64,000 bases of DNA from an uncultured Chloroflexia bacterium (GCA_963768675.1 CAVYIV010000015.1:23586-87585); one strand, 5' to 3'. Counted from the first letter of the stretch, positions 8,126 to 27,946 are shown. A program made the numbers and translations. The notes: generated from the sequence alone by a model not told the origin.

Positions 8126-8410
8126 TCAGGCGAGCGACTCCCCGAGCCCGCTCTCCACGGCCGCGCGAAGCACCTCGAGCGCCGCGTCCTCGTCCGGACC
8201 ATCCGCGCTCACCTCGATCTCATGGCCCTGCTTGATCTTGAGCGCCGTCACGGCGAGCATGCTCCGCGCATCCACGGACGCCGACGCCGTGCTGAGGTTG
8301 CTGACGCGGACGGCCGTGCCGCGGTGGGCCGCCGCGGCCCGCACGAACGTGGCGCCCGGCCGCAGGTGGATGCCGGACGGGTTGCGGACCGTGAGCCGGA
8401 TCGTCTTCAT
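8126..8410 (-). CDS. ptsH: HPr-family phosphocarrier protein
   Basis: 94-aa reading frame inside a longer ORF-track entry: MKTIRLTVRNPSGIHLRPGATFV (His-15 region). GGAGGAACC lies just upstream. The ATG overlaps the upstream stop (ATGA at 8407-8410). Confidence 0.9.
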   Translation of the reverse strand: MKTIRLTVRNPSGIHLRPGATFVRAAAAHRGTAVRVSNLSTASASVDARSMLAVTALKIKQGHEIEVSADGPDEDAALEVLRAAVESGLGESLA

Positions 8411-9477
8411 GGGTTCCTCCAGGTGGACGAACGATCGTCGATCTCGGACAGGAGCGCAACGGGTCGACCGCGCGTCCGCTCCCACGCGGACGGGTCGGCG
8501 GAGGCGGCCTCCACCAGGGTGGCGAGCGCCGCGTTGACCGGTGCGGGCACCCCAGCCGACTCGCCGGCCCGGGCGACGCCGCCGTTCAGCCAGGCGACCT
8601 CCGACGGCCCGCCGCCGGCCCGCAGATGGAGCAGCAGCGACGGCGCCTTCCCGCCGCGCGCGCCGCCGACCACCCGGCGCAGGACGGGGTACGCGAGGGC
8701 GGCGGGAGCCCGGTATCCCGCGGCGAGCCAGCGGACGTCGGCACCGGGGAGGCGCACCGGCGAGAAGCCGAGCGCGTGCATCACCCCGAGCGCCTCGAGG
8801 ACCGCTGCCCGCTCGACGGCGAACAGCCGCCGGTCGGCGTAGACGGCTGCCGCGTCGCGGTCCAGGAGGGCCGGCACCGCGTTCGCGACCATGTTCGTGA
8901 GCAGCTTCGACCACTTCATGGCGTGCCAATCGCCGACGACCGCGGCCGGCAGCCCGGCCTGGCCCAGCGCCCCCAGGATCGCGGCCTCGGTAGCGTGCGT
9001 ATCGCCCTGCACGTGGCCGAGGGCCAGACCGCGGTGCTTCCGCCAGGCCAGTGTGCCGTCCGCCTTCCGGTCCACCGGCGCCGTGAGCGACCCCGCAAGG
9101 AGCGGCGCGGCCGGGCGGGCGGCCACGACCGTCTGCTCGGCACCGATCCCGTTCTCGAGGGTGACGAGCGTGACGTTCGGCCATGCGGCACAGGCCGCGA
9201 TCGCGGCGCCGAGGTCGGGCATCTTGACGGCGAGGACCACGTAGGCCGGACGGTCTAGGGCGGCCGTCCCGTCCGTCCGCTCCACGGTGGCGTGCCGCAG
9301 CTCACCGGCAGGTGTGCGGACGACGATCTCGGCGGGACCCCGGAAGGTTCCGGGCCTGTCGACGAGCGTGACGCGCTCGCCGGCTCGAGCGAGCAGCGCC
9401 GCCACGAACGAGCCGACCGCGCCTCCCCCGAGGATCACCACGCTCGGGCTCGGCCCGGCGGGCAGGGACGGGGTCAC
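8407..9477 (-). CDS. ketopantoate reductase (PanE/ApbA)-family NAD(P)-dependent oxidoreductase
   Basis: 356 aa with N-terminal Rossmann VVILGGGAVGSFVAALLARAG and PanE/ApbA-like length and layout. The GTG start overlaps the dhaM stop (GTGA at 9474-9477). Confidence 0.8.
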   Translation of the reverse strand: MTPSLPAGPSPSVVILGGGAVGSFVAALLARAGERVTLVDRPGTFRGPAEIVVRTPAGELRHATVERTDGTAALDRPAYVVLAVKMPDLGAAIAACAAWPNVTLVTLENGIGAEQTVVAARPAAPLLAGSLTAPVDRKADGTLAWRKHRGLALGHVQGDTHATEAAILGALGQAGLPAAVVGDWHAMKWSKLLTNMVANAVPALLDRDAAAVYADRRLFAVERAAVLEALGVMHALGFSPVRLPGADVRWLAAGYRAPAALAYPVLRRVVGGARGGKAPSLLLHLRAGGGPSEVAWLNGGVARAGESAGVPAPVNAALATLVEAASADPSAWERTRGRPVALLSEIDDRSSTWRNP

Positions 9478-9899
9478 TCCGCGAGCTTGTCCTGGCTGAG
9501 CGTGGCATCGGCGGCATCGCAGACCGAGAGGAGGTCGTCGCCGATGCTGGCCTGGATCGCCGCGACGATCGCGCCCTCCACCACGGGCCCGCGGCTCAGG
9601 CGGACCCGGGCGGCCTGCGCCGGGTCGAGGAGCTCCAGCGCGGTCGAAGCCGAGAGGACGGCGCTCCCGAGATCGACCATCACAACGACGCCCGCTCCCG
9701 CATCCGCCTTCTCGATGGCGGCCATGATGCGGGTTGCGTCCGTGCCGATGCTGCCGTCCTCGAGCCCGCCGGCGGCAACGATGCGCACGTCATCGCCGGC
9801 CATCTGCGAGGCGAGCTCGAGCGTGCCGTCGGCGACCTTCGCCGAGTGTGACACGATGACGAGCCCGACGAGTGCCTCGGCTCCGTCGACGCCCGCCAC
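9474..9899 (-). CDS. dhaM: dihydroxyacetone kinase phosphotransfer subunit DhaM (single-domain EIIA-mannose type)
   Basis: LVGLVIVSHSAKVADG (phospho-His region)...VVVMVDLGSAVLS. Start placed at GTG 9897-9899, 5 nt after the glpC stop. The ORF-track start at 10433 lies inside glpC. The start is approximate. Confidence 0.8.
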   Translation of the reverse strand: MAGVDGAEALVGLVIVSHSAKVADGTLELASQMAGDDVRIVAAGGLEDGSIGTDATRIMAAIEKADAGAGVVVMVDLGSAVLSASTALELLDPAQAARVRLSRGPVVEGAIVAAIQASIGDDLLSVCDAADATLSQDKLAE

Positions 9900-14306: not shown

Positions 14307-15803
<1,497 letters not shown>

Positions 15804-15841
15804 GTGTCTCTCCATGCGGATCTAGGTGGCGCCCGCCGGAT

Positions 15842-16483
15842 CTAGCCGGCGCGCAAAGCGTCGCGAAGGGATTCGAACAGGATCGTGGTGCTCGTCGCAC
15901 CCGGATCCTGGTGGTTCGCGGAGCGTTCCCCGAGATAGCTCGCCCTGCCCTTGCGGGCCACGAGCGGGGTCACCCGGTCGCGCCCCTGCGCCGCCGCTAC
16001 CGCGGCAGCGTCGAGAGCGGCCGGGAGATCGTCGATGCCCGTTTCGAGGGCCACGACGGCGGGTGTCATGGCATCGACCATCGTCTTGTCGTCGAGGCCG
16101 GCCTTGCCGCGGGCGATGACGCCCTCAAGCCCGGCCCGGAACCCTGCGGCAAGCTGGGTGGGGCCGATCTCCGTGGCCGTCCCGAACGATGTGCCGAGGC
16201 GAAGAAAGAAGGTCCCGTAGAGGGGCCCGCTGGCCCCTCCGACCGTGGAGATGAGCTTCATCCCGGTCTGCTTGAAGAGCGTTCCGGCATCGCCGTCACG
16301 GAGCCCGGGGAGGAGCTCCATGACGGCCGTCATCCCGCGGTCCATGTTGATCCCGTGATCCGCGTCGCCGATGGCGGAGTCGAGCTGCGTCAGCTCCTCC
16401 CTGGCGGCGCGGATCCGGTCGGCGAACGTCTCGAGAAACCGCGAGAAGTCGCCCGTCGAGATCACGGCGATCAGACTCCCCAA
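15842..16483 (-). CDS. dhaL: dihydroxyacetone kinase ADP-binding subunit DhaL
   Basis: DAK2 motifs [41 protein letters not shown]. The start is either TTG 16481-16483 or GTG 16463-16465, 5 nt after the dhaK stop. Confidence 0.9.
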
Positions 16484-17469
16484 CGCAGTCCCGGGGTCTT
16501 GACCGGCGCGTCCCAGTAGCGGAGCAGCTCGTCATCGAGCTTGAGCAGCGTGACCGACAGGCCCGCCATCTCGAGCGAGGTGATGTAGCTCCCGACCAGG
16601 TTGCGCGCAATCGTGATCCCGCGACCCGTGAGGATCTTGTTGACCTTGCGATAGGCCACGTACAGCTCGATGAGCGGCGTGCCGCCCATCCCGTTGACGA
16701 AGGCGAGGACGCGGTCGCCGCTCCCGAAGATCCCCTCCTCGAGGATCGGCGTGACGAGCATCTCGACGATCTCGTCGGCCGGCTTGAGGGCCTCCCGACG
16801 ACGGCCCGGCTCGCCGTGGATGCCGATCCCGATCTCCATCTCCGAGTCGGAGATGTCGAAGGTCGGCTTGCCGGCGGCGGGGACGGTGCAGGAGGTCAGG
16901 GCCATGCCCATCGAACGGACGTTGTCCTGGACCTTCTGGCAGAGCGCGGTGACCGTCTTGAGGTCGGCACCGGCCTCGGCGGCCGCTCCGACGATCTTCT
17001 CGGCGAGGACCGTGCCGCCGACGCCGCGGCGACCCGCGGTGTAGAGCGAGTCCTTCACGGCGACGTCGTCGGCGATCACGACCGAGGCGACCTCGATCCC
17101 TTCCGCCTGCGCCATCTCGGCCGCAATCTCGAAGTTCATGATGTCGCCGGTGTAGTTCTTCACGATGTGAAGGACGCCGGCTCCACCGTTGACCGCCTTC
17201 GTGGCGGCGAGCATCTGCTCGGGGACGGGCGACGTGAAGACGGCGCCGGGGCAGGCAGCATCGAGCATGCCAAGCCCGACGAAGCCGCCGTGCATCGGCT
17301 CGTGACCGGAGCCACCACCGGAGATGATGCCCACCTTGCCGGGGCGGGGGGCGTCCTTGCGGACGATGATGTTCGGCTCCTCGACCCGGATCAGGTCGGG
17401 GTGCGCCGCAGCCATGCCGGCGAGGGCCTCGTCGACCTCGCGCTCGGGGGTATTGATGAGCTTCTTCAT
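16471..17469 (-). CDS. dhaK: dihydroxyacetone kinase subunit DhaK
   Basis: MKKLINTPE...[22 protein letters not shown], full-length DhaK resemblance. ATG 17467-17469 is preceded by GGAGGAG. Confidence 0.93.
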
Positions 17470-17595
17470 GCGCTCCTCCAATGGCGAGTCAACGACCGAT
17501 GCTCAGGGAATGTCGGGTAGAGACTTCGGAGCGCCGGCGGGCGGGGCCGCAACCGCCGGCGCTCGGGATCGCGAAGATCCCGGCTGGGGATCGGG

Positions 17596-18330
17596 TCAGT
17601 TCGTGAACGCCTTCAGGATGTAGTTCCGGTACACCGTGACCCAGAACGCAGCGGCGATCGCGCCGCCGATGAGCGGGCCGGCCACCGGGATCCACGCGTA
17701 CTCCCAGTCGCTGCTGCCCTTGCCGGGGATCGGCAGGACGGCATGCATGATCCGCGGCCCGAGGTCGCGGGCGGGATTGATCGCGTATCCGGTCGTGCCG
17801 CCGAGCGACATGCCGATGACGAGGACGAGAAGCGCGACGGCCAACGGGCCGAGGCTCGCGGTGTTCTTGCCGAAGCACAGGATCACGAAGACCAGGACGA
17901 ACGTGCCGATGATCTCCGAGACGAGGTTCCAGAGCGGGTTGCGAATGGCCGGGCCGGTCGAGAAGACGGCGAGCTTCAGGCCCGGGTCCTCGGTCTCAGC
18001 CCAGTGCGGGTAGTAGTGCAGGAAGACGAGCGTCGCGCCGATCATGGCGCCGATCATCTGGGCGAGCCAGTACGCCGGGACCTCGTCCCACGTGATCGCG
18101 CCCTTGATGGCGAGACCGAGGGTAACCGCCGGGTTCAGGTGCGCGCCGCTGTACGGGCCCGACACCACCACGCCGGAGAAGACCGCGAACGCCCATGCGA
18201 AGGTGATGACGACCCAGCCCGCGGCATTGGCCTTGGACTTGTTGAGCAGGACGCCCGCGACGACGCCGTCGCCCAGGAGGATCAGGATCATGGTCCCGAT
18301 CAGGTCGGCTACGAATTTCTCTGCAGTCAT
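17596..18330 (-). CDS. glpF: glycerol uptake facilitator (MIP/aquaglyceroporin)
   Basis: Two NPA boxes (HLNPAVTLG, INPARDLGPR) and six hydrophobic segments. Start at ATG 18328-18330 (MTAEKFVADLIG) with GAGGGAG upstream. Confidence 0.92.
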   Translation of the reverse strand: MTAEKFVADLIGTMILILLGDGVVAGVLLNKSKANAAGWVVITFAWAFAVFSGVVVSGPYSGAHLNPAVTLGLAIKGAITWDEVPAYWLAQMIGAMIGATLVFLHYYPHWAETEDPGLKLAVFSTGPAIRNPLWNLVSEIIGTFVLVFVILCFGKNTASLGPLAVALLVLVIGMSLGGTTGYAINPARDLGPRIMHAVLPIPGKGSSDWEYAWIPVAGPLIGGAIAAAFWVTVYRNYILKAFTN

Positions 18331-18449
18331 GCTCACTCCCTCAATTGGGTTGGACACCAACGCCGGCTGCGAGCCCGCTCGCTCGATCCCTCCGCTGACG
18401 CGATGGCGACCCCGGCCCGGGTCACGTTGCGGCCGATCACGCCGACGCC

Positions 18450-18537
18450 ACAGTGCCCTCGAGCACTGTTGCCAAGACGGTACGCCAGCGGCGGGGTGCG
18501 AAACGTCAAGGAAACGTCTAGGTTGCAGACGCGTTTC
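18450..18537 (-). promoter_or_regulatory. candidate operator region upstream of glpF: palindrome ACAGTGC-N6-GCACTGT plus three GAAACG half-sites
   Basis: ACAGTGCCCTCGAGCACTGT at 18450-18469. GAAACGTC at 18500-18507 and 18511-18518 are direct repeats; GACGCGTTTC at 18528-18537 is inverted. All lie in the 230-nt gap between the DhaL paralog and glpF. I found no convincing -35/-10 pair. Confidence 0.3.
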
Positions 18538-18560: not shown

Positions 18561-19220
18561 TCAGGCGACCCCAGCGACCGCGTCCGCGAGCGCGCGGACG
18601 AGTAGGGCGCTCGAGACGGCACCGGGATCCAGGTGGTCCATCGAGCGCCGACCCAGGTAGCTGGCCCGCCCCTTCGTCGCCACGAGCGGCACCGTGCGGA
18701 GCGCGCCGGCCTCTGCTGCATCCGCGGCGCAGCGCGTTGCGGCCGGCAGGTCGACCCCACCGAGGCCAGCCGCCTCGAAGGCGACGGCAGCCGGCACGAG
18801 AGCGTCGAGCATCGTCTTCTCGCCGGGCCGTGAGTGGCCGAGCGTCGCGATACCGTCGACGGCCGCCCAGAAGACGCCGGCGAGCTGCGCGGACGTGATC
18901 GCGGACGCTGCCGGCCGCGCTTCCAGCCGCGCGTCCAGCGTCGCGCCAGCCCGCATGAGCGCGCGGCCGTAGAGCGCGCCGCTGGCGCCTCCGACCGTCC
19001 CGGTGATCGTTCGGCCCGCCATGACCAGCAATGCCCCGGGCGGCGTCGTCTCGACGTCGCTTGCGGCCAGGCGCCCCGTAAGCAGACGGAAGCCGCGATC
19101 GAGGTTGATGCCGTGGTCGCCGTCCCCGATCGCAGCGTCGAGCTCCGTCAGCCGAGCGCGCTCGGCGGCGATGCGGGCGGCGGCGAGGCGGAGCCAGCCG
19201 GCGACGAGCGCGCCGCTCAC
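18561..19220 (-). CDS. DhaL-like DAK2-domain protein (paralog 2)
   Basis: LDAAIGDGDHGINLDRG, GGASGALYG, GEKTMLDA, MDHLDPGA. Start set at GTG 19218-19220, 19 nt after the upstream stop. The ORF-track start at 19334 lies inside the upstream gene. Confidence 0.8.
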   Translation of the reverse strand: MSGALVAGWLRLAAARIAAERARLTELDAAIGDGDHGINLDRGFRLLTGRLAASDVETTPPGALLVMAGRTITGTVGGASGALYGRALMRAGATLDARLEARPAASAITSAQLAGVFWAAVDGIATLGHSRPGEKTMLDALVPAAVAFEAAGLGGVDLPAATRCAADAAEAGALRTVPLVATKGRASYLGRRSMDHLDPGAVSSALLVRALADAVAGVA

Positions 19221-19671: not shown

Positions 19672-19748
19672 CGAGCACCTCCGCGCATGGGGCGTCCACG
19701 CCCCCCTCCACCGCGGTGGCCCACGACGGAGGGTAGACTCTGCCGTGG

Positions 19749-20474
19749 ATGAGTCTAGGACGGCCCGCCAGACGGACGGTGGGTGATGGCGCCACCGCGG
19801 TGATCTTCACCGCCGAGGACGTCGTCGCCTTCATCGGGCGCGCGGCGGCGGCGATCGCGCGCCACGAGGCGCTCCTCGACCGGCTCGACGCGGCGCTGGG
19901 CGACGGCGACCACGGCACCAACATGTCGACCGGCCTGCAGGCCGTCGTCCGGGCGCTCGCCGACGAGGCACCGGCCGACGCGGTCGGGCCGCTCGACATG
20001 GGAGCGCTGCTCCGGCGCATCGGGCACACCCTGGTGGGCAGCGTCGGGGGCGCAAGCGGCCCGCTCTACGGAACACTGTTCATCGAGGCGGGCTTTGCGC
20101 TCGACGGGCGAAGCGGGGTGGACCTGGTCACGCTCGCCAGCGCTCTCGACGCGGGCCGGGCCGGTCTCGCCCGGCGCGGCCGCTGCGCCGTCGGCGACAA
20201 GACGATCCTCGACGCCCTCGAGCCCGCCGTCCACGCGCTCCTGGCCGGGGCTGCGGCAGGGCTTCCCCCGGACGAGGCCTTCGTGCGGGCCGCCAGCGCC
20301 GCCCGCGACGGCGTCCGGGCCACGATCCCGATGATCGCGCGGCGCGGCCTCGCCCTCCGCCTGGGAGAGCGTTCGCGCGGCCATCGCGACCCCGGCGCCA
20401 CGTCGTGCTTTCTCCTCATCCGCTCGATGCTCGACGGACGGCCCGGGTGGCGCACGTCGCGGCGGCGCCGGTGA
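19749..20474 (+). CDS. DhaL-like DAK2-domain protein (paralog 3), translationally coupled to a histidine kinase
   Basis: [41 protein letters not shown]. The stop TGA 20472-20474 overlaps the kinase GTG 20471-20473. Confidence 0.8.
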   Translation: MSLGRPARRTVGDGATAVIFTAEDVVAFIGRAAAAIARHEALLDRLDAALGDGDHGTNMSTGLQAVVRALADEAPADAVGPLDMGALLRRIGHTLVGSVGGASGPLYGTLFIEAGFALDGRSGVDLVTLASALDAGRAGLARRGRCAVGDKTILDALEPAVHALLAGAAAGLPPDEAFVRAASAARDGVRATIPMIARRGLALRLGERSRGHRDPGATSCFLLIRSMLDGRPGWRTSRRRR

Positions 20475-22084
20475 GCGACGAGGAGACGCTCAGGGCGCGG
20501 GTGGCCGCCCTGGAGGACGAGCGGCGGCGCGCCTTCGACGAGGCCCAGCGCGAGGCGGACGCGATGTTCGCCCAGTACCAGCTCAGCCAGCTCCTCGCCT
20601 CCGGCGACAATCTCGACAAGCTGGCGCCGGCGGTTCTGGCGGAGATCGCCCGCACGGTCGGAGCGGCGGCCACGGCACTCTGGCTGGCGGCTCCCGCGCG
20701 GCGCACGCTGCATCGGATCGCCTTCCTGGCGATCGCCGACGCAACACCTCCAGGTGCGCCCGCCGGGGAGACCGCCCGGGCCACCGACGTCCCGGGCGCA
20801 TTCACGGACGCGGGCGCGGCGGAGCGATGGGCCGCCCGAGCCGGCTGGTTCGGCGTCCCGCTCGAGGAAAGCCGGGCTCTCGGCGTGAGCGGGGCCGGCC
20901 ACGTCGCGCTCGGCTACCTCGCCGTCCGGCCCCCGCGCGGCGGGATGCTCGACCCAGGTCATGCGCGCTACCTGGGGCTGGTCAGGCGCGAGCTCGCGCT
21001 CGCGTTTCGCTCGGCGCAGCTCCGGGGCGCACTGGCCCGTGAACGGGCAACGCTCGCGGCGATCCTCGACGGCGCGAGCGACGCGATCATCGCCGTGGAC
21101 TCGGACTGCCGGATCACCCGCCTCAACGGAGCCGCGGCACGGCTCGTCGGCGCGGCGGAGCGGGAGGGGATCGGGGCCACCTGCGAGGCTTTCCTCGGCT
21201 GCGTGCAGGAGGCGAGCGGCCGGCGCGGCTGCGGCCGGACCTGTCCGTTCCGCGAGGTCCTGGCCCATGGCCGGCCGCTCGTCCGCGAGCAGGTCGTCGC
21301 CGGCCCCGGAGCCGAGGCGATCCCGGTTGCGGCGAGCTATGCCGAGATGTCCGGCTCGCCACCGGGCGCGGTCGCCGTCTTGCGAGACCTCCGCGAGACG
21401 CGCGCGCTCGACGCGCTGAAGTCGAGCTTCGTCGCCGCGATCTCGCACGAGCTCCGGACACCCCTGGCGCTCATCAGCGGGCATACCCAGAGCCTGCTCC
21501 ACCTCGGCCTCGACGCGCCCACGAGCCAGCACCACCTCGAGCGCATCGGGGACGCCGTGGATCGGCTGAGCGGGCTCGTCGACGACGTCATCGACGTGTC
21601 TCGGATGGAGAGTGATCAGCTCGCGCTGGAGCGCGCCCCGGTCGACCTCGAGGCGCTGCTCCGGGCGTTCGCGGCCGAGCAGGCGGAGATGCCCGGCGCA
21701 CCGCCGATCACGCTTGACGTCCCGCCGCTGCCCCTCGTGGACGTGGATGCGCGCCGCATCCGCCAGGTCCTGGCGAACCTGGCCGCGAACACGCTGAAGT
21801 ACGCGGGCCCGGGCGCGTCCGTGACCATCAGTGCCCGCCACCTGGGGCCGGACTCGGTCGTCGTGTCGTTCGCCGACGACGGTGTCGGAGTCGACCCGGA
21901 TGAGCGTGCCCAGATCTTCGACCGGTTCTTCCGGGGCGAGCGGGTCCGCGAGTCGCGGATCCCCGGGAGCGGGCTCGGCCTGCACGTGTGCCGCCGCCTT
22001 GTCGAGGCACATGGGGGTTGGATCCGGCTCGACGCAACCCGGCGCGGCCTGTCGATATCGTTCCGCCTCCCGGTGTTGCCGTGA
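20471..22084 (+). CDS. soluble sensor histidine kinase (coiled-coil/GAF-like, PAS, HisKA, HATPase_c)
   Basis: H-box FVAAISHELRTPLAL, N box LANLAANTLKYAG, DDGVGVDPDERAQIFDRFFRG, GSGLGLHVCRRLVEAHGG, and a PAS-like segment LAAILDGASDAIIAVDSD. I saw no hydrophobic membrane segment. Start set at the GTG overlapping the upstream stop. Confidence 0.88.
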   Translation: MSDEETLRARVAALEDERRRAFDEAQREADAMFAQYQLSQLLASGDNLDKLAPAVLAEIARTVGAAATALWLAAPARRTLHRIAFLAIADATPPGAPAGETARATDVPGAFTDAGAAERWAARAGWFGVPLEESRALGVSGAGHVALGYLAVRPPRGGMLDPGHARYLGLVRRELALAFRSAQLRGALARERATLAAILDGASDAIIAVDSDCRITRLNGAAARLVGAAEREGIGATCEAFLGCVQEASGRRGCGRTCPFREVLAHGRPLVREQVVAGPGAEAIPVAASYAEMSGSPPGAVAVLRDLRETRALDALKSSFVAAISHELRTPLALISGHTQSLLHLGLDAPTSQHHLERIGDAVDRLSGLVDDVIDVSRMESDQLALERAPVDLEALLRAFAAEQAEMPGAPPITLDVPPLPLVDVDARRIRQVLANLAANTLKYAGPGASVTISARHLGPDSVVVSFADDGVGVDPDERAQIFDRFFRGERVRESRIPGSGLGLHVCRRLVEAHGGWIRLDATRRGLSISFRLPVLP

Positions 22085-22810
22085 TGCCGGAGCCGCGACG
22101 GGGTGCCGAGATCCTCATCGTGGAGGACGAGCCCGAGTTCGCCGACCTCCTGGCCCTCTGGGTCGAGCGCCACGGCTGGCGACCGCGCGTGGCGCGCGAC
22201 GGCGCCACGGCGATCGTCGAGCTTCGAGGCCGCTCCGCCCGACCTGATCCTGCTCGACGTCAGCCTCCCCCGCCTGAGCGGCTGGCATGTCATCGAGCGG
22301 ATCCGGGCATCGAGCATGGTCCCGATCCTCCTCGTCACCGCGCGCGACGGCGAGCAGGACAAGATCCGCGGGCTCGGCCTGGGCGCCGACGACTACGTCA
22401 CGAAGCCGCTCAGCTTCCCCGAACTGATGGCCCGGATCGAGGCCGTCCTCCGACGGACGAACGCCCGGTCCGCCGCCATCGCCGGCGACGAGATCAGGCA
22501 CCCCGGACTGGTCATCGACGGGCGCGGCCATCGCGTCACTGCCGAGGGAACCGAGATCCACCTGACGCCGACCGAGTACCGCCTACTCCGCCATCTCGCC
22601 GAGCGCCCGGGATCCGTGGTCGGCCACGCCGAGCTGCTGACCGCGGTCTGGGGCGCGGGCTACCGCGACGACATCCACCTGCTGCGCGTCACGATGCGCA
22701 ACCTTCGAGCCAAGCTCGCCGATGCGGCGCCGGCACGGCGTTTCCTCGAGACGAGCTATGGGGTCGGCTACCGCTTCCGCGCGGCCGGCAGCGCGCCGGA
22801 CGAAGCCTGA
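22084..22810 (+). pseudogene. OmpR/PhoB-family response regulator, frame-interrupted as assembled (one extra base near 22222)
   Basis: The receiver N-terminus (MPEPRRGAEILIVEDEPEFADLL...DGATAIVE) is in the frame of ORF 21988..22875. The rest (FEAAPPDLILLDVSLPRLSGW...wHTH LTPTEYRLLRHL...GVGYRF) is in ORF 22103..22810. Junction: gtc gag c ttc gag. Length check: 727-1=726 nt, i.e. 242 codons. ATG 22084 overlaps the kinase stop (TGATG). Confidence 0.85.
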
Positions 22811-26580: not shown

Positions 26581-27277
26581 TCACTGGCGCGGCTCGTCCG
26601 GGCCGTCCGGACGCGTCCTCCGCCAGCCGGTCTTCGTCCGGCGAACACCGTCCGCGCCCGGCGGCCCGTCGACCTCGCCGGGCGGGGCGGTCCGCGCCTC
26701 GTCGGCCGGCCGGAGCTGGAAGGCGTTGAAGCGGTTCGAGGCCTTGCTGAGACCGTCGCGCGCCCACGCCTCCACTGCGTCCGCGGCGGCGTCCAGGAGC
26801 TCGTCGAGGCGACGCCGCTCCGCCGGCTGGAAGACGGAGAGGACATGGTCCACGGCATCCCGGCCCGGCTCGCCGATCCCGATCCTGAGCCGGGGGAACG
26901 CCTCCGTGTTCAACTCCTCGATGATCGAGCGGAGGCCGTTGTGACCGCCGTGGCTGCCGCCCTCGCGGAAGCGCATCTTCCCGAAGGGCAGGCTGAAGTC
27001 GTCGGTCACCACCAGGATCTCGTGAAGCGGGGCGCGCTCGCGGGCGACCAGCGCGGCGCACGGCGAGGCCCGAGTCGTTCATGAAGGTGAGGGGCTTCGC
27101 CAGCACGAGATCGAGGCCGCGGAACCGGCCCTGCACCACCGCGCTCGCGTCGCGGGTGCGCCCGCGACCACTCCAGCCGGCCCGGTCGGCGAGCCGATCG
27201 ACCACCATCCAGCCGATGTTGTGGCGCGTCTTCGCGTACTGCTCGCCCGGGTTCCCGAGCCCGACGACGATCTTCAC
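26581..27277 (-). pseudogene. pth: peptidyl-tRNA hydrolase, frame-interrupted as assembled (extra base near 27052)
   Basis: [23 protein letters not shown]...MNDSGLAV is in the frame of the 22817..27520 [46 protein letters not shown] is in ORF 26581..27012. Junction: gtg cgc cgc g ctg gtc. Length check: 697-1=696 nt. GTG 27275-27277 is preceded by GGAGGA. Confidence 0.88.
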
Positions 27278-27362
27278 GAATCCTCCGTCGCCCACGACGA
27301 ACGGCCCGGATCCTCCTGGACCGGGCCTCGACGGGATGGTAACGCGCCCCGGTCCGGATGGC

Positions 27363-27946
27363 TCATGCGCCGGCGAGGATCGTCCGCTCCAGGGACCGCA
27401 TCTCCGCCTCCTCCCCGGGCTCGGCGTGGTCCCAGCCGCACAGGTGGAGCGCGCCGTGGACGGCGAGAAGGCGGAGCTCGTCGGCCGGTGCCCAGCCGAC
27501 GTCGCCGGTCTGGCCGCCACGGCCCTCCGTCGCCTGGCGGATCGCGCGCTCGACCGAGATCACGATGTCGCCGAGGTGGAGACGCGCGCCGGGCGGCAGG
27601 AGGAAGGCGGGCTCGGACGATCGCCGAGTCGCCACCGGCGGCCGCAGTGGAGCGCCCGGATGGGGCGGGTACGCCGCGGGCGGCAGGAGCGGGAACGAGA
27701 GGACGTCGGTGGCCCCTGAGGCGCCGAGGAACGTGCGGTTGAGACGGGCGAGCTCGCGATCGCCCGCGAGGACGAGCCCGACCGAGGCCGGTTCCGGCGC
27801 CCCGCCCGCGATCAGCGCCGCACCGCAGGACGCGCGCCAGGACCGACGCCGGCAGGAGACGCGGCAGCGCCGGCGCGGAGCTCGAGATCGACGCGGAAGG
27901 GAGGGAGGTAGAGGCGACGAACCGGGCTCGACGTCAGCGGGGTCAT
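27363..27946 (-). pseudogene. ybeY: rRNA maturation endoribonuclease YbeY, frame-interrupted as assembled (extra bases near 27868 and 27822)
   Basis: The C-terminal [11 protein letters not shown] metal motif and TDVLSFP are in ORF 27363..27965. The N-terminus MTPLTSSPVRRLYLPPFRVDLELRAG starts at ATG 27944-27946, overlapping the upstream stop as ATGA, in a second frame. The LPRLLPASVLARVLR segment is in the third frame. Length check: 584-2=582 nt. Confidence 0.8.

Follow-up and report, generated by a model that had tools for sequence, protein, structure and literature searches.

A DhaL paralog coupled to a soluble histidine kinase in Chloroflexota: a candidate co-sensor beside a glycerol and dihydroxyacetone gene array

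In a 64,000-nt stretch of DNA from an uncultured Chloroflexia bacterium (GCA_963768675.1, CAVYIV010000015.1:23586-87585), hereafter the window, three overlapping plus-strand genes encode a paralog of the dihydroxyacetone (DHA) kinase subunit DhaL, a soluble histidine kinase, and an OmpR-family response regulator (Table 1). The paralog, which we call Dak2_3, is encoded by the third Dak2 gene of its cluster, after one beside dhaK and one beside dhaM. Together, the three genes form a conserved unit across a deep lineage, and their arrangement is not an accident. Both its fold and its hidden Markov model score place Dak2_3 in the Dak2/DhaL superfamily, and it fails two features that define a functional DhaL: an invariant sequence motif and adjacency to dhaK. 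We propose, with a probability that we put at about 0.6, that Dak2_3 is a nucleotide-loaded co-sensor of the adjacent kinase and is no longer mainly catalytic. The system is confined to one uncultured lineage, and the case made for it here is drawn from comparative genomics.

An earlier note on this DNA had suggested that the paralog may report phosphotransferase-system or adenylate state to a two-component system that controls the neighboring operon. That idea stands in part. The conserved and coupled triplet, the distinct subfamily to which the paralog belongs, its position facing a dhaM-led dha/glp operon, the lack of any other regulator among the called genes scanned nearby, and the repeats at neighboring catabolic promoters speak for it. 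Two findings refine it: no specific homology between the kinase sensor and that of DhaR was detected, and two loci (L128 and L129) have the kinase and no paralog.

Conservation and coupling of the triplet

The kinase frame begins with a GTG at 20471, and the TGA of Dak2_3 (20472-20474) overlaps this codon, which is the GTGA overlap that the earlier note had described. The kinase TGA (22082-22084) in turn overlaps an ATG at 22084, as had also been claimed, and an in-frame GTG at 22081 as well. Since relatives have ATT in place of this ATG in the alignment, GTG 22081 is the likely start of the regulator and would give a second GTGA overlap. The kinase and regulator genes overlap in relatives too. 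Among 64 distinct Dak2/kinase junctions, 49 (~77%) are 4-nt NTGA overlaps and 9 more fall between -8 and +4 nt. Thus, about 90% overlap or nearly abut, and the remainder are alignment artefacts at frameshifted contigs.

Homologs of Dak2_3 are numerous at 59-93% identity, and the nearest relatives of the window are contigs of metagenome-assembled genomes labeled Chloroflexota, Candidatus Limnocylindrales, or “Chloroflexia.” On four relatives' contigs, which hold the paralog at five places (61-78% identity), the Dak2-kinase-regulator triplet is always divergent from dhaM. We scanned one genome per GTDB species, which returned 79 loci; seven of them have the Dak2_3 subtype and, with the five places in relatives, make up a set of 12 genome loci at 51-79% identity. 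The kinase lies directly downstream of Dak2_3 in all 12, with an N-terminal module that is 40-80% identical, and the regulator follows the kinase in each of the 10 loci that reach far enough, two contigs stopping inside the kinase gene. The other 72 scan loci encode canonical DhaL; none of them has this kinase, and in 60 of the 72 the gene directly follows dhaK.

The same association was found from the side of the kinase. A metagenome scan with its N-terminal module gave 80 loci, two of which were cut at a contig end, and a Dak2_3-type gene stands immediately upstream of the kinase in 76 of the 78 informative ones (97%). The search for conserved triplets with overlapping stops that the earlier note had recommended was therefore positive on both counts. 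Overall, the arrangement recurs in ~90 independent loci, so it is not due to chance, and the Dak2-kinase association persists down to 51% identity. A divergent dhaM is present wherever the contig runs far enough upstream, except in L159, which has no dhaM match, and in the two paralog-less loci. These two, L128 (1-5523) and L129, look as if an L007-type relative had recently lost these genes.

The adjacency could in principle be inherited synteny with no functional link between the genes, as the examples belong to one Chloroflexota lineage and the downstream mfd and pth are syntenic as well. The surrounding operons, however, are rearranged between subgroups: the subgroup of the window has dhaM-dak2_2 followed by a separate glpF-dhaK-dhaL-glpK operon, whereas the divergent operon of the most distant subgroup (L009, L021, L045, and others) is dhaM-HPr-glpF-dhaK-dhaL. 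The flank past the regulator also varies, with an extra major facilitator superfamily (MFS) transporter gene in L004. The triplet and its overlapping junctions are intact despite these rearrangements, as would be expected if the unit were under selection rather than held together by simple synteny. We consider synteny without function very improbable and largely refuted.

Dak2_3 as a remodeled DhaL

Dak2_3 has a full Dak2 domain (PF02734, 156 bits) and carries GHRDPGA. The earlier note's identification of a third DAK2 protein in the cluster was borne out by both Pfam and TIGR02365, and all four of the Dak2 motifs that it quoted were found. Against TIGR02365 (DhaL), the protein scores 170 bits, with a cut-off of 138.3, and its two paralogs score 183 and 223 bits. 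Its AlphaFold2 (AF2) model has the eight-helix DhaL fold, and the best Foldseek match is E. coli DhaL (3pnl_B, E = 1e-10, TM 0.84), to which it is 37% identical.

We aligned 204 Dak2 sequences from all fetched loci with E. coli DhaL, whose residue numbers are used below unless the window is named. The D30/D35/D37 Mg2+ triad, H38, the GGASG loop, GDKT, and DPGA are kept in 77-78 of the 78 Dak2_3 clade members, and N41 is likewise kept in both the Dak2_3 and canonical groups. The differences lie elsewhere. In a set of 118 distinct canonical DhaLs that spans many phyla, six positions (I33, M130, K176, R178, S180, and Y181) are each 95-100% invariant, and Dak2_3 replaces them by L33, I130, R176, L178, L180, and R181 in 97-100% of 67 distinct sequences. 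The motif KGRASY, present in 99-100% of the canonical proteins, thereby becomes RGLALR; in the window, L201, L203, and R204 of Dak2_3 stand at canonical R178, S180, and Y181. We take R178 and M130 to be annotated ADP contacts of E. coli DhaL. Charge changes including R90E, as well as M70H, are also fixed in the clade.

Two cysteines of Dak2_3, Cys146 (20184-20186) and Cys220 (20406-20408), are clade-invariant; canonical DhaL has Ala or Ser there, and Cys is essentially absent.

In a neighbor-joining tree, the 67 Dak2_3 sequences form one clade with no intruders. The sister group is the Dak2_2 type, a DhaL whose gene lies next to dhaM at the same loci and which is the closest paralog. The gene for Dak2_3 never adjoins dhaK, and the kinase gene always comes next. 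Such a pattern would result from local duplication of a DhaL and later neofunctionalization of the copy, in which the nucleotide-holding core would have been kept and one surface or pocket edge remodeled.

A third catalytic DhaL isoform would account for some of these data. Such an isoform would work with DhaK and DhaM and be encoded by the first gene of an autoregulated operon, while the kinase sensed something else. Dak2_3 passes the TIGR02365 cut-off, has the DhaL fold, keeps all of the Mg and nucleotide residues, and has dhaM as a neighbor in its loci. Yet six nearly invariant DhaL positions have been replaced and then fixed. In addition, every locus that is long enough encodes a canonical DhaL, either next to dhaK or as the last gene of the dhaM operon. 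Dak2_3 never lies by dhaK; it has instead a 4-nt overlap with the kinase in ~77% of distinct junctions, and this association holds to 51% identity. We therefore judge the isoform explanation quite unlikely.

The kinase and its proposed input

The kinase has the SHELRTPL, NLAANTLKY, DDGVGV, FDRFFRG, and GSGLGL boxes, and its nearest NCBIfam types are PnpS, PhoR, and WalK. Leaving aside a frameshift in the regulator that is described below, the kinase and regulator have the classical elements of a two-component system (H-box, N/G1/F/G2 boxes, a Response_reg receiver with its Asp, and winged-helix output). There is no credible membrane helix in the kinase, in keeping with the earlier note; the KD19 maximum is 1.38 and falls inside a charged GAF helix. 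The AF2 model of residues 1-320 (mean pLDDT 78) consists of an N-helix of ~40 residues (3-43), a GAF fold (48-153), a linker helix also of ~40 residues (162-202), and a PAS domain. Pfam calls PAS_4 and does not call the GAF domain, which was recognized from the model and from its Foldseek matches to GAF structures (E 4e-5 to 1e-3). The “GAF-PAS” label that the kinase had been given is thus correct.

Across 65 distinct full-length kinase sequences, the longest invariant run is FAQYQLSQL (aa 33-41, 20567-20593) in the N-helix, in the context Q..AD..FAQYQLSQL.A.G, and it exceeds the H-box. The helices that flank the GAF domain are the conserved elements of the sensor region, and the GAF core is the least conserved segment of the kinase, where 2 of 115 positions are invariant. 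Conservation of the pocket would be expected if the GAF domain bound a small ligand. The combination of an invariant N-helix with a variable GAF core is therefore easier to reconcile with a protein partner than with a small molecule bound in the GAF domain. The N-terminal module has 68 representatives (E <= 1e-10), many of them fragments, among 1.84 billion cluster representatives, which points to a dedicated, lineage-specific sensor.

Five apparent Dak2-kinase fusions in the representative library (P0164, P0193, P0202, P0210, and P0213) were rejected as Rosetta-stone evidence. Their readable stretches alternate with wrong-frame, Arg-rich ones, which marks them as artefacts of frameshifts in error-prone assemblies. 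A relationship between the kinase sensor and that of DhaR was also rejected as evidence: phmmer found nothing, a profile search against the PDB gave 4lrx_C at E = 0.08 amid generic PAS matches, and the DhaR sensor (PDB 4LRX) was absent from the Foldseek top 50 for the kinase model, where the matches were generic GAF and phytochrome structures.

A loop of the PAS domain (21182-21244) contains Cys238, Cys244, and Cys258, which are invariant, and Cys254, which is present in most homologs and replaced by His in the distant subgroup. These residues suggest a metal, Fe-S, or redox site that would be a second sensory input. Cys-cluster PAS kinases are known, NreB being an example. It is unlikely, in our estimate, that this site is the kinase's real input, reporting oxygen or redox state for glpABC, glpK, and dha, with Dak2_3 as a secondary modulator or an output such as a feedback element. 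The invariant cysteines would fit such a role, as would the anaerobic-type glpABC in the target cluster and the two loci that keep the kinase and regulator without the paralog. A PAS input by itself, however, leaves unexplained the 97% co-occurrence and overlap coupling with a remodeled DhaL, and the most conserved element of the kinase is its N-helix, not its PAS domain. The two inputs are not mutually exclusive and may coexist.

Based on these features, we propose the following mechanism for Dak2_3 as co-sensor. Translational coupling would produce it in fixed proportion to the kinase, and it would hold a tightly bound Mg-nucleotide. Whether this is ADP or ATP would be set by the branch of the phosphotransferase system (PTS) that runs through DhaM~P; discharge of the nucleotide onto DHA bound to DhaK may contribute as well. 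One nucleotide state would dock on the invariant N-helix and GAF module of the kinase dimer, which would shift the register of the coiled-coil linker and hence the kinase/phosphatase balance. The phosphorylated OmpR-type regulator would then bind 11-bp-phased repeats at the glpF/dhaM promoter and turn on glycerol and DHA uptake and catabolism (glpF/dha/glp). We infer the binding of Dak2_3 to the kinase, the active nucleotide state, and the targets of the regulator; that the ADP form would be the activator is suggested by analogy with E. coli. A more specific version, which we offer tentatively and hold to be somewhat doubtful, is a pseudo-enzyme switch in which a permanently bound ADP is phosphorylated by DhaM~P, so that PTS state and DHA flux are passed to His-Asp signaling via the kinase N-helix. 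The Cys-rich PAS domain may add a redox or metal signal to that of such a switch.

It is important to note that several observations weigh against a co-sensor. With all Mg and nucleotide residues intact and the DhaL equivalog cut-off passed, residual catalysis is possible. The two exceptions among the 78 metagenome loci have the kinase and regulator divergent from glpF-dhaK, with neither Dak2_3 nor dhaM; the kinase can thus exist without the paralog and is not strictly dependent on it. All examples come from a single Chloroflexota lineage in which local synteny is strong, mfd and pth lying downstream, and shared ancestry accounts for some of the conservation. The PAS domain's own conserved Cys3-4 site could be the true input of the kinase, whose sensor resembles GAF and PAS domains in general, with no specific relationship to that of DhaR detected. 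Finally, the regulator is frameshifted in the window itself.

Dha-kinase subunits are textbook “trigger enzymes,” with two known solutions, DhaL and DhaK acting on DhaR and DhaQ acting on DhaS. For DhaR, a coiled-coil rotation mechanism was reportedly described by Shi and colleagues in 2014. In E. coli, DhaL::ADP activates and DhaK represses this GAF-PAS regulator (PMC10084136, PMC6643234). The system in the window resembles that of DhaR in that a Dha-kinase subunit fold with a bound nucleotide is the proposed signal to a cytoplasmic regulator, in its GAF-PAS sensor flanked by long helices, and in the divergence of the regulatory genes from the dha operon. It differs in that the proposed partner is a dedicated, remodeled DhaL paralog rather than the catalytic subunit, and in that the output consists of HisKA/HATPase_c and a separate OmpR regulator, while DhaR is of the AAA+/HTH enhancer-binding type. 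With different output domains and no specific sensor homology detected, the system is not of the DhaR type.

Another counterpart is DhaQ of L. lactis, a non-catalytic DhaK paralog dedicated to regulation that is encoded beside the dha operon and co-activates DhaS, according to PMC7590123, which cites Christen et al. 2006. On that account, both systems have a paralog of a Dha-kinase subunit encoded with its regulatory partner beside the dha operon. DhaQ is a DhaK (Dak1) paralog that binds DHA, unlike Dak2_3 from the nucleotide-binding DhaL (Dak2) family, and DhaS is a one-component TetR-type activator rather than a two-component system.

Control of a kinase by an accessory protein is known from PII-NtrB. 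In PhoU-PhoR and EIIA(Ntr)-KdpD/PhoR, small cytoplasmic proteins that report metabolic or PTS state bind the kinase and set its kinase/phosphatase balance (PMC9239213, PMC9239096). The role proposed for Dak2_3 is alike; unlike Dak2_3, the accessory proteins of PII-NtrB, PhoU-PhoR, and EIIA(Ntr)-KdpD do not have the Dak2 fold and are not translationally coupled to their kinases. The Dak2-domain fatty acid kinase FakA of Staphylococcus is said to influence the output of the SaeRS two-component system. Its effect, unlike the one proposed for Dak2_3, is indirect, via fatty-acid pools, with no gene coupling and no dedicated paralog.

Literature searches on DhaL/Dak2 proteins with histidine kinases found none described with a histidine kinase or two-component partner, in line with the earlier note, which knew of no example, and found no link of the PTS DHA-kinase branch to a His-Asp relay. 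Trigger-enzyme paralogs and accessory-protein control of kinases are each known; their combination is not. If the proposal is true, a DhaL paralog with a histidine kinase would be a third wiring of Dha-kinase subunits to transcription. It would show that a nucleotide-holding enzyme subunit had been duplicated into a dedicated two-component sensor, and in the pseudo-enzyme version it would also constitute a direct PTS-to-two-component link with a nucleotide cofactor as messenger. The system could serve as a compact, soluble model for accessory-protein control of a GAF-PAS kinase through coiled-coil helices, and as a way into the carbon regulation of Limnocylindria-type Chloroflexota, a group that is uncultured and abundant in soils, peat, and freshwater. 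TIGR02365 annotates Dak2_3 proteins as ordinary DhaL and so masks the subfamily, for which the LxLR signature and the FAQYQLSQL helix of the kinase are simple re-annotation markers.

Gene neighborhood, candidate sites, and frameshifts

The window has a G+C content of ~73%, and its relevant features are listed in Table 1. A 77-bp spacer separates Dak2_3 from dhaM1 (start 19671) on the opposite strand, which carries the whole glycerol/DHA/PTS array, as the earlier note had stated. The dhaM1 product scores 85.7 bits against TIGR02364, under the cut-off of 98.25. The start of Dak2_2 was set at the in-frame GTG 19220, and a 200-bp spacer lies between this gene and glpF. Beyond glpK, the minus-strand array continues with glpA, glpB, glpC, a second EIIA-Man, a PanE-like gene, HPr, plsY, and PTS enzyme I, all assigned by Pfam, and mfd converges on the 3′ end of the regulator gene. 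Among the called genes scanned from 1 to 30 kb, there was no transcription factor besides the OmpR regulator and no TetR gene, which agrees with the earlier statement that no GlpR-, DhaR-, or DhaS-type regulator is visible.

Table 1. Positions of the genes, kinase segments, and candidate control elements discussed in the text
Feature	Position	Strand	Basis or remark
glpK	14307-15815	-	Pfam
dhaL1, Dak2 gene adjoining dhaK	15842-16483	-	Pfam
dhaK	16471-17481	-	Pfam
glpF	17596-18360	-	Pfam
Presumed target operon glpF-dhaK-dhaL1-glpK	14307-18360	-	Pfam; relatives with the same gene order
Tandem 11-bp direct repeats CTAGACGTTTC and CTTGACGTTTC, upstream of glpF	18500-18521	-	Candidate regulator binding site
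Dak2_2, DhaL with canonical signature (keeps KGRASY), downstream of dhaM1	18561-19220	-	Pfam Dak2, 147 bits
dhaM1, EIIA-Man-type DhaM phosphoryl donor, 143 aa	19240-19671	-	Pfam EIIA-man
TAGACT, -10-like hexamer, 9 nt before the Dak2_3 ATG	19734-19739	+	
Dak2_3, DhaL paralog, 241 aa	19749-20474	+	Pfam Dak2
Histidine kinase, soluble, 537 aa	20471-22084	+	Pfam PAS_4, HisKA, HATPase_c
Kinase N-helix	aa 1-45		AF2 model
Kinase GAF	aa 46-160 (20606-20950)		AF2 and Foldseek
Kinase linker helix	aa 161-202		AF2 model
Kinase PAS	aa 203-312 (21077-21406)		Pfam PAS_4
Kinase HisKA	21419-21613		Pfam
Kinase HATPase	21746-22075		Pfam HATPase_c
OmpR-family response regulator	22081-22810	+	Pfam Response_reg, Trans_reg_C

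Candidate sites for the regulator were found at adjacent catabolic promoters, where phased direct repeats occur in all subgroups. OmpR/PhoB-family regulators usually bind head-to-tail repeats with a period of 10-11 bp. The CTAGACGTTTC and CTTGACGTTTC units upstream of glpF are the only matches with <=1 mismatch in the 64-kb window, and the tandem is also present at the glpF promoter of related loci. A second subgroup has the variant repeat CTGGACaatgtCTTGAC, and the dhaM promoter of the most distant subgroup has three 11-bp-phased repeats, (C/G)TTGAT-N5-YTTGCT-N5-CTTGAC, that are kept in ten loci. From this pattern, we infer that the regulator binds the repeats at 18500-18521. We rejected the tandem as a plain -35 box, as its spacing to a conserved TACCGT is 21 nt, too long for canonical sigma-70; this spacing makes an activator site the likelier, if unproven, assignment.

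A conserved palindrome or hairpin, ACAGTGC-N6-GCACTGT, lies in the glpF 5′ region (18450-18469, minus strand) just past the -10-like TACCGT, and a 5′ untranslated region (UTR) of ~100-200 nt follows it. The second subgroup has a compensatory hairpin variant, ACGGTGCC-N4-GGCACCGT. The element may act as a 5′ stem-loop in the RNA or as an operator. An Rfam scan of the intergenic and 5′ UTR regions, including this hairpin, returned nothing relevant.

Upstream of Dak2_3, the eight closer loci shown have TAGACT or TACACT 7-11 nt ahead of its start codon. Of the three most distant loci, in which this codon is unmapped, two likewise have an upstream TACACT. The conservation of this hexamer just before the ATG suggests a leaderless-type promoter and a transcript that is leaderless or nearly so. 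The closer subgroups share the Dak2_3 N-terminus MS(I/L)G.

Close to 22222, where the earlier note had advised resequencing, alignment to L086 (97% identical), L087, and L098 placed one extra C near 22218. The receiver is split by it across two frames, frame 1 holding Response_reg profile positions 1-38 and frame 2 holding positions 38-111 and Trans_reg_C, and is broken ahead of the phospho-acceptor Asp. The regulators of relatives are intact at 229-251 aa. The essential pth gene (26581-27520, minus strand), 4.8 kb away, is also split in two frames, at Pfam profile position 72/73, and its N-terminal half forms an in-frame fusion with the long mfd open reading frame. Because pth is split likewise and the relatives' regulators are intact, the regulator frameshift is probably an assembly error, and a true pseudogene is unlikely.

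Farther along the minus strand, between glpC and plsY, the second EIIA-Man (DhaM-like) gene is followed by a PanE/ApbA-like oxidoreductase gene and HPr (8126-9870). The EIIA-Man and ApbA parts are called as a single fused protein of 500-508 aa in some relatives, an unusual PTS-associated oxidoreductase.

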